From an uncultured Rhodospirillaceae bacterium (GTDB taxonomy: Bacteria; Pseudomonadota; Alphaproteobacteria; UBA9219), in NCBI GenBank assembly GCA_964626265.1, contig CAZVCG010000012.1, forward strand, positions 1-52,093: 52,093 nt of DNA. Reading direction: 5' to 3'. Position numbers and translations under genes: made by a program. The notes beneath the pieces are model-generated. The model ran no database searches, was not told the origin of the DNA, and saw only the letters and a program-made list of their open reading frames with translations. Of the stretch, positions 10,536 through 51,355 are shown in pieces (within the stretch, counting starts at the first letter, position 1; the number at the start of each line of letters is the position of its first letter).

Positions 10536-10568
10536 GCGAGCGTTAACTATAAGATAGGGCGGTAAAGT

Positions 10569-10697
10569 CCCCCTCCCCTTGCGGGAGGGGGTAGGGGAGG
10601 GGTATATAAAGATTTCAATTTACCCCCTCACCTGCAAAAACTAATGGTTTACTGCGTAAACAAAAGTTTTTGCTTCCTCTCCCTCCAGGGGAGAGGG
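10569..10697. repeat. palindromic element family B, copy 1 (CCCCTCCCCTTGCGGGAGGGG type)
   Basis: terminal hairpins ccccctcccc-ttgc-gggaggggg and cctctccc-tccag-gggagaggg; shares accccctcacctgca with the copy near 44172. Confidence 0.8.
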
Positions 10698-28292: not shown

Positions 28293-29807
28293 TAAAAGGT
28301 TGGCGTCTTGGGCCGGAAAATCCGTGCGGCAATGCGCGCCGCGGCTTTCTTCGCGGTGAAGCGCGGCAGTCGCGATCATCAAACCCACAAGAGCCATGCC
28401 CGAATGCGCCGCGAGCGGCGTGAGCGCGTCTATTGCTTGCTCCAAGCCTTCTTTGTCCCTCAACACGCCGACGTGTTTTTCCATGATGGCGCGGATGGTT
28501 CCGGCCGTGTCATCCCCGCGAAAGCGGGGATCCGGTTGCGAGCGTCCGCGAGCAGTTAAAGTAGCTAACGGCGTCTCATAGCTATGGCCGTTCTTTGATT
28601 CATATGGCGCGTTGACACGCGCCGCTGGATTCCCGCTTTCGCGGGAATGACAATTTTCAATCCCCTTTGCCACCTTCAACCCGAACACCACCGCTTCCAG
28701 CAAGGAGTTGCTCGCGAGGCGGTTCGCGCCGTGCAATCCCGTTGCCGCGACTTCGCCGCACGCCCATAGGCCGTTCAAGTTTGTGCGCCCATCGGCATCC
28801 GTCGCCACGCCGCCCATGTGGTAATGCGCCGTGGGCCGCACGGGGATCGGCTGTCGCGTCGGGTCAAGCCCAGCGCCAAGGCACAACCTGTAAATCGTCG
28901 GAAAGCGTTGCGCGAAATCGGGGATCATCCGCGCATCCAAAAACACGCGCCGCCCCTGCTGTAATTGCGCCCAGATTGCGCGCGCCACGATGTCGCGCGG
29001 CGCAAGCTCGTCGTGTTCCGAGCCGTTCATGAACCGCTCGCCGCGATCGTTGATCAATACCGCGCCTTCGCCGCGCAGGGATTCGCTTGCCAGCGGCATC
29101 GGGTCGAGGCCAACGTCGATGCCTGTCGGATGAAACTGCACAAACTCCAGATCGCGCAACGCTGCGCCAGCACGTGCCGCCAGCAAAATACCTTGTCCCC
29201 ATGAGCCATGTGGATTGGTTGTATGTGGCCACAATGCGCCCACGCCGCCCGTCGCCAAAACGATGTTGTCCGTCGCTATATGTTCTGTCTTGCCGTTGCC
29301 CACATACGTCACGCCTGTCACGCTGTTAGCATTGGTGGTGATCGCCGTCGCGTTGGCATCGTCGATCACCGTGATCGAAGGCGTTTTCAAAGCGCGCGCG
29401 GCTAAGGCTTTCGTCACCGCCGCGCCCGTACCGTCGCCATCGGCATGGACGACGCGGCGACGACCGTGGCCGCCTTCCAGACAAACGTCAATCTCGCCAG
29501 CGCGGTTTTTGTCGAACGCGACGCCCCAATCCATCAATTGTTGAATGGCCGCAGGCGCGGCTTGCGTCACCATGCGCACGATGGCGGGGTCGCACAATCC
29601 CGCGCCTGCCGCTATCGTATCCTGCGCATGAAGTTCCGGCGTGTCGTCCGGCCCCATCGCGGCGGCGATGCCGCCTTGAGCCAAAATGCTGCTGCTTTCC
29701 TGCCCGATCGTCTTACGCGTGAGCACGATAACGGGCTGCGGCGCCATCGCGAGCGCAACCGTCAATCCGGCGATACCGGAACCTATGATGACGGGGGGCT
29801 GGCTCAT
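28152..29807 (-). CDS. nadB: L-aspartate oxidase with two REP-derived segments
   Basis: IIGSGIAGL, AQGGIAAA, QFHPT, HYHMGG, GLHGANRLASNSLLE and ESRGAH. Confidence 0.96.
   Translation of the reverse strand: MSQPPVIIGSGIAGLTVALAMAPQPVIVLTRKTIGQESSSILAQGGIAAAMGPDDTPELHAQDTIAAGAGLCDPAIVRMVTQAAPAAIQQLMDWGVAFDKNRAGEIDVCLEGGHGRRRVVHADGDGTGAAVTKALAARALKTPSITVIDDANATAITTNANSVTGVTYVGNGKTEHIATDNIVLATGGVGALWPHTTNPHGSWGQGILLAARAGAALRDLEFVQFHPTGIDVGLDPMPLASESLRGEGAVLINDRGERFMNGSEHDELAPRDIVARAIWAQLQQGRRVFLDARMIPDFAQRFPTIYRLCLGAGLDPTRQPIPVRPTAHYHMGGVATDADGRTNLNGLWACGEVAATGLHGANRLASNSLLEAVVFGLKVAKGIENCHSRESGNPAARVNAPYESKNGHSYETPLATLTARGRSQPDPRFRGDDTAGTIRAIMEKHVGVLRDKEGLEQAIDALTPLAAHSGMALVGLMIATAALHREESRGAHCRTDFPAQDANLLRHSGPVSLHGAGSSRNPVYLAIGTDGTYKYPLVTTDSPTGSPLSRG
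28508..28652. repeat. palindromic element family A inserted in frame in nadB
   Basis: tgtcatccccgcgaaagcggggatcc ... ggattcccgctttcgcgggaatgaca. Confidence 0.92.
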
Positions 29808-30799
29808 TTCACCCCGATCATCCGCTCGACGGATTTCCGCGCGTCGGCGGCGATAGCTTCGGGGATCGTGATTTCATGCGTCATCGTTTCCAGCGACGCG
29901 CGAATCTTTTTCAGCGTGATGAGCTTCATATGCGGGCACATCTGGCAAGGGCGCACGAAATCGATTTCCGGATGCTGCGCGGCGATGTTGTCGCTCATTG
30001 AGCATTCGGTCATCAGCAAAGCCTTGGAAGGACGCTTAGCTTCGATCCAGTCGATCATCTGCGCGGTCGATCCGGCGTAATCGGCCACCTTGATCACGTC
30101 CGGCGGGCATTCCGGATGCGCCAGAACCGTCAGCCCCTTGTGCTGGTCGCGATACGCCTTGATTTCATCCGCCGAAAAACGTTCGTGCACTTCGCAACGC
30201 CCGCGCCACGGAATGATCTTCACGTTCGTCTGCGCAGCGACGTTGAGCGCGAGATATTCGTCGGGGATCATGATGACTTCCGGCACGCCGAGCGACTCCA
30301 CGATCTTCTTCGCGTTGCCGGAGGTGCAGCAAATGTCGGAAACCGCCTTCACGGCGGCGGAGGTGTTCACATACGTCACCACAGGAACTCCCGGATGTTT
30401 TTTCTTGAGCGCGATCACGTCCTCCGGCGTGACGGAATCCGCCAGCGAACATCCGGCCTTCGGGTCAGGCGTCAACACGGTGCGTGACGGGTTGATGAGC
30501 TTCGCCGTCTCGGCCATGAAATGCACGCCCGCGACGACGATCACGTCGGCTTGCGTTTTCGCGGCTTCGCGGGCGAGGGCGAGCGAGTCCCCCATAATGT
30601 CGGCGACGCCGTGAAAGATTTCCGGCGTCATATAATTGTGGGCGAGAATGATCGCGTTGCGCTCTTTCTTCAGGCGCTGAATATCCAGAACGTCGGCGGC
30701 GAACGTCGCCCACTCTTCGGGGGGGACGACGTTCCTCACCTTCGCGTAGATTTCCGCCGTGGCCTCAAGAGCCTTGTTAACGGAACTGAAAGCGTCCAT
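29804..30799 (-). CDS. nadA: quinolinate synthase A
   Basis: LAHNY, GDSL, HFMAETAK, AGCSLA, CEVH, AHPEC and CPHMK. Confidence 0.97.
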   Translation of the reverse strand: MDAFSSVNKALEATAEIYAKVRNVVPPEEWATFAADVLDIQRLKKERNAIILAHNYMTPEIFHGVADIMGDSLALAREAAKTQADVIVVAGVHFMAETAKLINPSRTVLTPDPKAGCSLADSVTPEDVIALKKKHPGVPVVTYVNTSAAVKAVSDICCTSGNAKKIVESLGVPEVIMIPDEYLALNVAAQTNVKIIPWRGRCEVHERFSADEIKAYRDQHKGLTVLAHPECPPDVIKVADYAGSTAQMIDWIEAKRPSKALLMTECSMSDNIAAQHPEIDFVRPCQMCPHMKLITLKKIRASLETMTHEITIPEAIAADARKSVERMIGVK

Positions 30800-30802
30800 A
30801 AA

Positions 30803-30823
30803 TTATGCTCCTTTTGAGCATTA
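30803..30823. promoter_or_regulatory. NadQ operator-like palindrome overlapping the nadA RBS
   Basis: ttatgctcc-ttt-tgagcatta, a 21-bp imperfect palindrome. Confidence 0.75.
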
Positions 30824-30876
30824 ATAGGCCATAAAAAATATGCCGAGGTCCCGCGCGAGTCCTGAGCACAGCTTTT

Positions 30877-30897
30877 ATATAGTCACAGTGAGCATAA
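30877..30897. promoter_or_regulatory. second NadQ operator-like palindrome
   Basis: atatagtca-cag-tgagcataa; same 9-3-9 geometry as 30803-30823. Confidence 0.6.
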
Positions 30898-30940: not shown

Positions 30941-32023
30941 ATGAACATCAAAACCCCCGAAAACGTCGGAATCGAACTCAGCGCCGTCATCGTGGCGGTT
31001 ACGCGCAACGAGCCTCAGGTTATGTTGTTGCCGTCCCGCGCCTTGCCTTCGGGGCCTTTCAGCACCCATCACCGCACGCTGGAGCAGGGGCTTCGCGCAT
31101 GGGTCGATGCCCACATCGGCCTCAAGCTCGGCTACGTCGAACAGCTTTACACGTTTGCCGACAAGGACCGCACTGCCGACAACATGCGCGCCGTATCCAT
31201 CGGTTATTTGGCTTTGGCGCGCGCGCCTACGGTGAAAAACGGCGATCAGGAAAAAGAAACTCTAAAAATATTTCCTTGGTACGATTTTTTTCCGTGGGAA
31301 GACCGCCGCAAAGGCGTGCCGGCCGTAACGGATCACATCTTAAAAGCTTTGACGCAATGGAAAGCCGCTGCACCGGATGCCGCCACCCGCAAAGCGCGCG
31401 ATAACCGCATCGCCATCAACTTTCCCAAAGACCCCCGCGCTTGGAACGAAGAACTCGTTTTGCAGCGTTACGAACTTCTATGGGAAGCGGGATTGATCGA
31501 GGAGGCGCAAAGGCATTTTTTGAGCGAGAAAAGCGTTGCAGGTAAGCACGGTAAAACTCCCTCCCCCTTGCGGGGAGGGTTGGGGAGGGGGGCAAACGAC
31601 TGGGCAGAGAATATGGCTTTATATCCAAAAAACTCTGCCAAGCGGATGGCCCCCACCCCTAACCCCTCCCGCGAGGGGAGGGGGATTTTCATCCCCGGCC
31701 TGTCCATGCCGCACGATCATCGCCGCATTCTTGCGACGGGCATCGCACGGTTGCGCGCCAAGATCAAATACCGTCCCGTCGTGTTCGAACTGATGGCCGA
31801 ACGCTTCACGCTTCTACAATTGCAGAATACCGTCGAAGCGCTGGCGGGCTTGCGTTTGCACAAGCAAAACTTCCGCCGCCTTGTGCAAGGGCAGGGGCTT
31901 GTCGAGGAAACCAGCGGAACGACAAGCGACACGCGCGGCCGTCCGGCGAAACTCTTCGCCTTCCGCCATGATGTCTTGCGCGAACGCGCCGCCGCAGGGA
32001 CTAAGCTGCCGCGTAGTGGTTAG
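30941..32023 (+). CDS. nadQ: Nudix-like NAD biosynthesis regulator NadQ (COG4111), with in-frame palindromic insertion
   Basis: LGYVEQLYTF, DHRRILATG, KYRPVVFELM and LHKQNFRRLV; divergent from nadABC. Confidence 0.88.
   Translation: MNIKTPENVGIELSAVIVAVTRNEPQVMLLPSRALPSGPFSTHHRTLEQGLRAWVDAHIGLKLGYVEQLYTFADKDRTADNMRAVSIGYLALARAPTVKNGDQEKETLKIFPWYDFFPWEDRRKGVPAVTDHILKALTQWKAAAPDAATRKARDNRIAINFPKDPRAWNEELVLQRYELLWEAGLIEEAQRHFLSEKSVAGKHGKTPSPLRGGLGRGANDWAENMALYPKNSAKRMAPTPNPSREGRGIFIPGLSMPHDHRRILATGIARLRAKIKYRPVVFELMAERFTLLQLQNTVEALAGLRLHKQNFRRLVQGQGLVEETSGTTSDTRGRPAKLFAFRHDVLRERAAAGTKLPRSG
31557..31684. repeat. palindromic element family B inserted in frame in nadQ
   Basis: ctccctcccccttgcggggagggttggggagggg ... 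ccccacccctaacccctcccgcgaggggagggg. Confidence 0.88.
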
Positions 32024-44071: not shown

Positions 44072-44127
44072 TGATCCTTTATAATCCCATGGTCTGCGCA
44101 ATTTCTCCAAGGAAGCGAGGAAAAGTT

Positions 44128-44210
44128 CCGCTCCCCTTGAGGGAGGGGATAGGGTAGGGGTAGATGAAAGAAACCCCCTCACCTGCAGGAAAGCGACACT
44201 TGCAAGAGGG
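44128..44210. repeat. palindromic element family B, partial copy
   Basis: ctccccttgagggaggggatagggtagggg ... accccctcacctgca shared with the 10569 copy. Confidence 0.7.
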
Positions 44211-51327: not shown

Positions 51328-51355
51328 AAAAAAAGCCCCTCCCTTGCGGGAGGGG
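51328..51355 (-). terminator. intrinsic terminator after cysS (family-B-like hairpin)
   Basis: cccctccc-gcaa-gggagggg followed by c and T7 on the minus strand. Confidence 0.85.

Follow-up and report, generated by a model that had tools for sequence, protein, structure and literature searches.

A dispersed palindromic repeat, very probably translated as a tolerated passenger in the inter-domain hinge of a NadQ regulator

A gene that carries a long palindrome inside its coding sequence raises the question of whether the encoded peptide was selected as part of the protein or belongs to a repeat that the protein merely accommodates. We addressed this question for the nadQ (COG4111) regulator gene of an uncultured Rhodospirillaceae bacterium, which lies on contig CAZVCG010000012.1 of assembly GCA_964626265.1 (contig C12 of our genome G000; the whole contig, 52,093 nt, is referred to as the window). 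The sequence-only reading of this locus had described a nested stem-loop of a repeat family, family B, placed in frame inside NadQ, and had proposed that the resulting Pro/Gly/Arg-rich loop could affect DNA or effector binding. The stem-loop is indeed present in an intact frame, with the coordinates, peptide and inner stem described, and very probably this feature is a copy of a dispersed non-coding bipartite palindromic repeat that is translated in the NadQ hinge as a tolerated passenger.

Residues 206-248 of NadQ (TPSPLRGGLGRGANDWAENMALYPKNSAKRMAPTPNPSREGRG, beginning with TPSPLRGGLGRG and ending in PTPNPSREGRG) are encoded by nucleotides 31556-31684, which contain no stop codon, and are flanked by RYELLWEAGL and DHRRILAT with the reading frame unbroken. 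The element itself is longer than this segment. A family profile built from six genomic copies (nhmmer) matches 31541-31695 with an E-value of 4.6e-46, and alignment of the copies shows that they share the ends AAGCRCGGTAAAAyTCCC... and ...GGGGARTTT, represented here by AAGCACGGTAAAA... and ...GGGGGATTTTCAT (31544-31692). As these conserved ends belong to the element, the addition of an in-frame peptide stands, but its size is about 50 residues (K202 to ~I251), rather than the 43 first proposed. The two arms of the nested palindrome (31553-31609 and 31633-31689) are 57 nt long and 74% complementary, each with its own perfect 8-bp hairpin, and among the family copies the arms are conserved and the centre is not. 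The predicted RNA fold (-95.5 kcal/mol) is far more stable than that of 200 shuffled sequences (-64.7 +/- 4.6 kcal/mol; z = -6.6), none of which was as stable, and the DNA fold of the element gives z = -5.5. The sequence is unrelated to the CGTC-type family A repeats of the same window. The coordinates of the component parts are collected in Table 1.

The genome (1.93 Mb, 54% G+C, 69 contigs, a metagenome-type assembly) contains six more full-length copies at 73-79% identity, seven in all, together with about 20 solo arm modules. Three of the seven full-length copies lie in frame within confirmed genes, encoding NadQ, RNase R and an Hda homolog. The copy in RNase R, a protein with RNB and S1 domains, has the same orientation and frame as that in NadQ and gives the peptide GKIPSPLRGGLGRG...APTPDPSREGRG, while the copy in the Hda homolog is read in the opposite orientation and gives PSPLAGEVRWGG...PPLPIPPREGKG. 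Module-based copies are also found in frame in three further genes, coding for PepN, a PIG-L-family deacetylase and a LexA-like repressor, in the last case in the linker between the helix-turn-helix (HTH) and S24 domains. What is conserved in the peptides is simply the arm sequence in translation, and since copies are read in either orientation there is no single functional peptide. The possibility that the element is stop-free in every frame was rejected, because the individual copies have just one to four open frames of six; in-frame survival thus reflects selection after insertion, and not a general property of the repeat. More widely, the element is present in 37 of the 55 genomes of the family-rank group, and in 11 of its 20 genera. 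With inverted arms of 57 nt, a length of about 150 nt, no transposase gene, seven full-length copies and this distribution among related genomes, the element has several features of a miniature inverted-repeat transposable element (MITE). The proposal that a second repeat family, unrelated in sequence to family A, donates peptide, here to an intact NadQ, is supported.

Two side observations concern these copies. The RNase R gene (C17:10212-12482) carries two different in-frame repeat inserts, both missing from the sister species. In the Met-start protein the family-B insert occupies residues 78-129 (108-159 when counted in the stop-to-stop frame), and the other, of the CGTC/REP-type family A (HPRESGDP...LDSRFRGNDA), lies at about 192-242. 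In the window, solo family-B-type modules are also found at 44113-44163 and 51335-51355, where they are apparently intergenic.

The comparison with homologous proteins indicates that the peptide is an addition to the regulator. In orthologs from 20 related genomes the match is confined to residues 1 to ~191 and ~250 to 360, and the solved structure of a NADQ transcription factor (PDB 7Q91) aligns (E = 1.3e-88) as two blocks, one at query residues 11-191 and one at 254-359, between which our protein has 62 unmatched residues (192-253) and the solved one a linker of 7. The variability of this linker in COG4111 proteins, stated in the sequence-only reading, is confirmed by the interval between I186 and H258, which measures 17-30 residues in 109 of 117 homologs versus 73 residues here. 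At the DNA level, the stretch from ELLWE to DHRRILAT, which contains the linker, is 267 nt long in our gene, against 192 nt for the sister species (G001) and 105-120 nt for ten other genera. The segment was found in none of 116 close homologs retrieved by a search of 5.8 billion proteins, nor in the orthologs, so that the proposal of an inserted repeat was not refuted by the ortholog comparison.

The intermediate length in the sister species has its own explanation. Its nadQ hinge carries 76 extra nucleotides (L002:2076-2151), which are a copy of a different dispersed repeat, family C, and in which no similarity to the family-B element was found by nhmmer with the filters off; for these reasons we rejected the view that the longer linker of the sister species is a decayed family-B copy. 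The family-C copy begins 27 nt closer to the domain boundary than the family-B element does here. When the family-B element is removed from our gene the stretch measures 118 nt, and when the family-C element is removed from that of the sister species it measures 116 nt, which is the normal length in both cases; the two species thus provide each other's empty site. Repeat inserts are also present in the same hinge of another two long-linker homologs (L168 and L169) whose DNA was retrieved (fold z = -5.4 and -11.2), one of which has a short B-type doublet of inverted modules and the other a module plus a reversed family-C element. The NadQ hinge has therefore been colonised independently at least four times, by two repeat families, and is a permissive site. 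Neither a nucleotide-exact empty site nor a target duplication was definable when the nadQ and RNase R genes of the two species were compared, since the flanks are too diverged. The family-B insert of RNase R is likewise missing from the sister species and from four other relatives examined, and the absence of the inserts of both genes from the sister species and relatives places the insertions after the split from the sister species.

The regulator around the insert appears to be intact. Its winged helix matches Pfam NrtR_WHD at residues 281-341 (E = 4.9e-19), and all 80 columns that are invariant in the alignment of the 117 homologs are retained. An AlphaFold2 model computed with these homologs as input has a mean predicted local distance difference test (pLDDT) score of 84 and a predicted template modelling score (pTM) of 0.82, with both domains modelled confidently. 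Values of pLDDT below 50 are limited to residues 207-240, modelled as coil, and to the final three residues. According to this model, the regulator would be intact apart from the insert, which would form a disordered loop in the hinge between its domains.

These results also bear on the suggestion that the hinge has been adaptively extended by the Pro/Gly/Arg-rich loop, with altered DNA binding, dimer geometry or response to the effector as the outcome. The insert lies exactly between the effector and DNA-binding domains, it contains five Arg and four Lys within 50 residues, and expansion of the hinge is a recurrent event in this protein family, all of which would fit such a role. However, the insert is species-specific, missing even in the sister species, and is predicted to be disordered; its conserved peptide coincides with the DNA arms while the centre varies freely; and the inserts of other lineages are unrelated in sequence and orientation, which points to tolerance over a specific function. 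An effect of the loop on DNA or effector binding thus finds no support in this analysis, and we regard adaptive extension as very unlikely. The pattern is most likely that of a tolerated passenger, rather than of a selected peptide.

A second alternative places the action at the level of the nucleic acid. The hairpin followed by GAUUUUCAU, or a G-quadruplex or triplex, would cause partial premature termination, ribosome pausing or RNase cleavage in nadQ, with the consequence of less full-length NadQ and a tuned de-repression of the NAD genes. A terminator-like site is present on the sense strand (Table 1), the fold is extreme, and a fold that permits a G-quadruplex is favoured for the module. 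Against this, terminator-like sites in the region are no commoner than in shuffled sequences, and the T-tract is short and interrupted; PIT/BoxC motifs reportedly showed neither terminator nor promoter activity in E. coli (PMC4666352); the element also occurs in genes of an essential type (those for RNase R and Hda), where strong termination would be harmful; and the sole RNA run found, with a 0.05 share of the sampled words, provided no usable data. We consider such an action unlikely, and it would in any case be compatible with a peptide that is a tolerated passenger.

The third alternative is that the feature is an artefact or a sign of decay, either an assembly chimera formed at the repeat or a nadQ pseudogene. 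The assembly is of the metagenome type, with its 69 contigs, and the modules recruit unrelated contigs at a depth above 400. Nevertheless, among the Logan contigs of two hot-spring metagenome runs, those at 31357-31622 and 31516-31681 cross the left junction and that at 31645-31883 crosses the right one, all free of differences; a further contig, from the activated-sludge run of a separate study, matches 31379-31619 with three differences. None of the Logan contigs examined joins the flanks without the element. The open frame, the two confidently modelled domains, the full set of invariant residues, and the palindrome ATGCTC-N5-GAGCAT at the start of the divergent gene that we take to be nadA all argue against decay, and we judge this alternative to be highly improbable. 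Separately, in runs X1, X2 and X4 the contigs recruited by the left module (31555-31592) have depths of 80-450, versus about 4 for the genome; the module is therefore abundant in other, far commoner members of the hot-spring community.

In our view, the course of events would be as follows. A MITE-like or repetitive extragenic palindrome (REP)-like repeat, made of two inverted C8-loop-G8-TTR-G8 modules around a variable centre, would have inserted into nadQ after the split from the sister species, as would also be the case for the RNase R insertion. The insert would have been kept because it entered a flexible hinge between two domains, preserved the frame and brought no in-frame stop codon. 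Its translation product would be a Pro/Gly/Arg/Ser-rich disordered loop of about 50 residues, leaving both domains intact, and this peptide would be tolerated as a passenger that has not itself been selected for any function. Selection would act as a filter, such that the surviving copies are those that are in frame and stop-free, in permissive loops of needed genes.

Several points weigh against this account. The element as delimited measures 149 nt, which is not a multiple of three, and the insertion boundaries are inexact. The gene could be a very recent pseudogene, despite its 80 retained invariant residues. Passenger status is deduced from non-conservation and predicted disorder, and a lineage-specific function is possible. 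Finally, a hairpin of -95 kcal/mol within an mRNA could have consequences.

A tolerated, translated repeat has its closest behavioural parallel in the Rickettsia palindromic elements (RPEs), which are translated and apparently do not conflict with the fold or function of the protein (Ogata et al. 2000, 2002, summarised in PMC10969869); in R. conorii nearly half of the copies make in-frame fusions (PMC10969869). Both are dispersed palindromic repeats of about 150 bp, many copies of which stand in frame in unrelated housekeeping genes, with at least six confirmed genes carrying module-based copies in this 1.9-Mb alphaproteobacterial genome. The likeness is one of behaviour only: the present element is very G/C-rich and built of triplex/G-quadruplex (G4)-type modules, and no sequence relationship is claimed, as the RPE sequences were not compared. 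In addition, the host is apparently an uncultured alphaproteobacterium of hot-spring and wastewater metagenomes and not a Rickettsia, and its copies are read in both orientations, so that there is no single "RPE peptide". What we describe is thus a known phenomenon, that of translated palindromic repeats, in a new instance that comes from a variant of a known repeat class.

This class is that of the BoxC/PIT/TMECO motifs described by Holder et al. (2015, PMC4666352), which are arranged as CCCTCNCCC-N3-6-GGGNGAGGG-N3-GGGNGAGGG and adopt class II purine triplexes. These motifs occur 3610 times in 262 proteobacterial genomes, sometimes as inverted pairs, are of no known function, and are always intergenic in E. 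coli K-12 (PMC4666352). Kaplan et al. (2016, PMC5100583) regarded the same loci, with the core GGGAGAGGGTTAGGGTGAGGG, as switches of the G-quadruplex-hairpin type. The family-B module has the same order of a C-rich stem, a short loop, a G-rich stem, a 3-nt TTA-type loop and a mirror G-rich stem, and it shares with the published motifs the dispersed, highly conserved copies, some in closely spaced inverted pairs, and the wide phylogenetic spread. The ITxF search (Holder 2015) looks for three blocks in succession, with stem lengths of 6-15 nt, loop lengths of 1-6 nt and no more than one mismatch, in which the third is the mirror of the purine block; by these rules the module qualifies as a putative class II (C-G-G) intrastrand triplex motif, a perfect mirror with eight triads and loops of 5 and 3 nt. 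It also contains a predicted canonical G-quadruplex motif (G3+ N1-7, four tracts) in GGGGAGGGTTGGGGAGGGGGG, and when G-quadruplexes are allowed in ViennaRNA the predicted minimum-energy structure is a three-tetrad quadruplex (-28.8 kcal/mol versus -22.1 kcal/mol for the hairpin). Judged from its sequence, the left module can thus form a hairpin, an intrastrand triplex or a G-quadruplex; the inverted right module has a four-tract G4 motif on the minus strand. With the E. coli members HPG1 and HPG2 (PMC5100583) it further shares the four-tract G-run, the TTA middle loop, a conserved 5' C-rich flank able to pair, and the pairing of members on opposite strands.

The module is nevertheless not TMECO in the strict sense, and this assignment was rejected. 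The published tracts have 9 nt (CCCTCNCCC / GGGNGAGGG) whereas those found here have 8 nt (CCCTCCCC / GGGGAGGG / GGGAGGGG), the core is GGGGAGGGTTRGGGAGGGG and not GGGAGAGGGTTAGGGTGAGGG, and a regular-expression search of the whole genome with the TMECO pattern gave no matches at zero or one mismatch and six at two mismatches, while the genome's own variant of the pattern with 8-nt tracts has four exact copies. Moreover, the TMECO motifs of E. coli K-12 and all E. coli HPG members are intergenic, whereas the nadQ copy and at least five others are in frame in confirmed genes. The module therefore appears, from its sequence features, to be a variant of the BoxC/PIT/triplex-motif class. The G-rich heptamer repeats of Xanthomonas and Nostoc (Rehm 2015) were rejected as a match, since they are tandem GGGNATC simple-sequence repeats. 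A Rfam scan of 31300-31950 with E-values up to 10 returned only generic long-hairpin matches to miRNA precursors, far below the gathering scores, and hence no known RNA family, and no paper was found in a full-text literature search with the module core sequence.

In a scan of one genome per bacterial or archaeal species, the exact 31-nt pattern of the left module, with 27 fixed bases, was found in at least 120 contigs, versus a chance expectation of about 1e-4. The matches listed come from Bacteroidota, Chloroflexota, Cyanobacteria, Planctomycetota, Armatimonadota, Actinomycetota and the alpha-, beta- and gamma-proteobacteria, and among them those of Rhizobium and Novosphingobium are again inverted doublets. 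At the end of an uncultured Bacteroidales contig (L021:7832-7897), the module is directly followed by an Illumina adapter (AGATCGGAAGAGC...), a contamination in a public metagenome-assembled genome. The family-C repeat that occupies the hinge of the sister species has the consensus CCTCTCCC-loop-GGGAGAGG-AAGCAAAA-variable hairpin-TTAGTTTTGC-AGGTGAGGGG, a length of about 76 nt and about ten copies in our genome, including one in the window at 10623-10695. It is a TMECO-like unit of C-stem and G-stem, with a variable, compensating hairpin placed before the last G-tract, and it often adjoins a family-B module; these observations include window positions 10553-10606 and 10623-10695.

A possible clue to how such modules spread comes from the only DUF559 (Vsr-like nuclease) gene of the genome (C2:15191-14808), which is bracketed by perfect 33-nt inverted modules (CCCCTCCCCTTGCGGGAGGGGTTAGGGGAGGGG). 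At subterminal positions these modules have ATAGCGCGA / ATAAGCGCGA, similar to the ATAAGCGC found at the ends of family-B copies. The cassette (C2:14688-15386) is found behind the stop codon of a GGDEF-type gene, the last ~20 nt of which (ggccgcaaccgcgtcgaggc) are repeated beyond the cassette. DUF559 is present in 33 of the 55 genomes of the family-rank group, and of 30 loci fetched ten are bracketed on both sides with the same geometry and five on one side. It occurs in 29 of the 37 genomes with the element versus 4 of the 18 without (Fisher p = 1e-4, uncorrected for phylogeny). The cassettes of our genome and of the sister species are non-syntenic, with no flanking similarity, and are 50% identical, compared with 73-91% for housekeeping orthologs. 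Outside this group, the DUF559 gene ycjD of E. coli K-12 has a TMECO motif 168 nt downstream (L167:5206-5240; NC_000913.3 ~1351205-1351239), a proximity with a chance probability of about 0.002 given 23 motifs in 4.6 Mb, and a DUF559 gene is found no more than 200 nt from the module in 3 of the 120 cross-phylum loci, versus about 0.06 expected. Most module copies are far from any DUF559 gene.

On this basis we tentatively propose, as a possibility that we do not rate as probable, that the C-stem/G-stem/mirror-G-stem modules are the inverted ends of selfish cassettes with a DUF559 nuclease (a Vsr-like PD-(D/E)XK enzyme) as their only gene, and that gene-less doublets, such as the NadQ insert, are non-autonomous derivatives spread by the nuclease or by repair at its cuts. 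An origin of the NadQ element as a simple internal-deletion derivative of the DUF559 cassette was rejected by inspection of the sequences, which have the modules and an 8-nt subterminal motif in common but differ in the centre. By analogy, the association hints at a partnership of nuclease and repeat like that of REPIN-RAYT, with another enzyme and a triplex/G4-forming recognition structure. As in the REP/REPIN-RAYT systems and classical MITEs, the units are short, non-autonomous and palindromic, often in inverted doublets, and as in the REP/REPIN-RAYT systems the same units flank a single-copy nuclease-type gene, here DUF559. In contrast to these systems, the candidate partner is a Vsr-like PD-(D/E)XK nuclease and not a RAYT/IS200-type transposase, and the GTAG or CGTC tag is absent here.

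The gene that received the insert agrees with the definition of its family. Rodionov et al. (2008, PMC2330246) defined NadQ/COG4111 by its putative role as a regulator of NAD genes and its chromosomal clustering with them. The protein described here combines a Nudix-like domain with an NrtR-type winged helix and is similar to the characterised NadQ. Its clustering with NAD biosynthesis genes rests on the divergent 331-aa open reading frame, which we take, from its sequence, to be nadA. At the start of this open reading frame, at 30803-30824, there is a palindrome TTATGCTC-CTTTT-GAGCATTAA that contains the ATGCTC-N5-GAGCAT core (30805-30821) and is a likely NadQ operator; an extra GAGCAT half-site is found at 30890-30895.

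Table 1. Positions of the nadQ gene, the family-B element and its parts in the window, and of the divergent gene
Feature	Position	Strand	Description and basis
nadQ (COG4111) regulator gene	30941-32023	+	Open reading frame, 360 aa; N-terminal Nudix-like domain, C-terminal NrtR-type winged helix
Whole family-B palindromic element	31544-31692	+	~150 nt; read in frame, K202 to ~I251
Left module	31559-31590	+	CCCTCCCC (31559-31566), CTTGC, GGGGAGGG (31572-31579), TTG, GGGAGGGG (31583-31590); inverted repeats and pattern match
Inner stem and loop	31602-31639	+	GGGCAGAG/CTCTGCC with 23-nt A/T-rich loop; variable centre, in which copies differ
Right module, inverted	31650-31684	-	On the minus strand CCCCTCCCC-TCGC-GGGAGGGG-TTA-GGGGTGGGGG; inverted repeat 31663-31670 / 31676-31683
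Terminator-like site in nadQ	31663-31693	+	8-bp GC-rich hairpin followed by GATTTTCATC; consensus scan
Divergent open reading frame	29804-30799	Divergent from nadQ	331 aa; list of open reading frames

With this insert NadQ joins the proteins that tolerate a translated palindromic repeat, which as a single finding is of small importance. For the family, it indicates that the inter-domain hinge of NadQ takes 25-50 extra disordered residues, which is useful for engineering or crystallising the regulator, and that a natural experiment on the lengthening of a linker by selfish repeats is available, with one hinge colonised four times by two repeat families. For the repeats, it adds a 1.9-Mb genome outside Rickettsia in which at least six genes have been invaded, and a class that spans phyla. 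To our knowledge, the origin and spread of the BoxC/triplex-motif repeats have had no explanation for about 30 years, and their function has not been known since the 1990s. The recurrent colonisation of the hinge and the association with DUF559 are the parts that most merit attention, and, if the link to DUF559 is true, it would provide a mechanism and a testable enzyme for these repeats.

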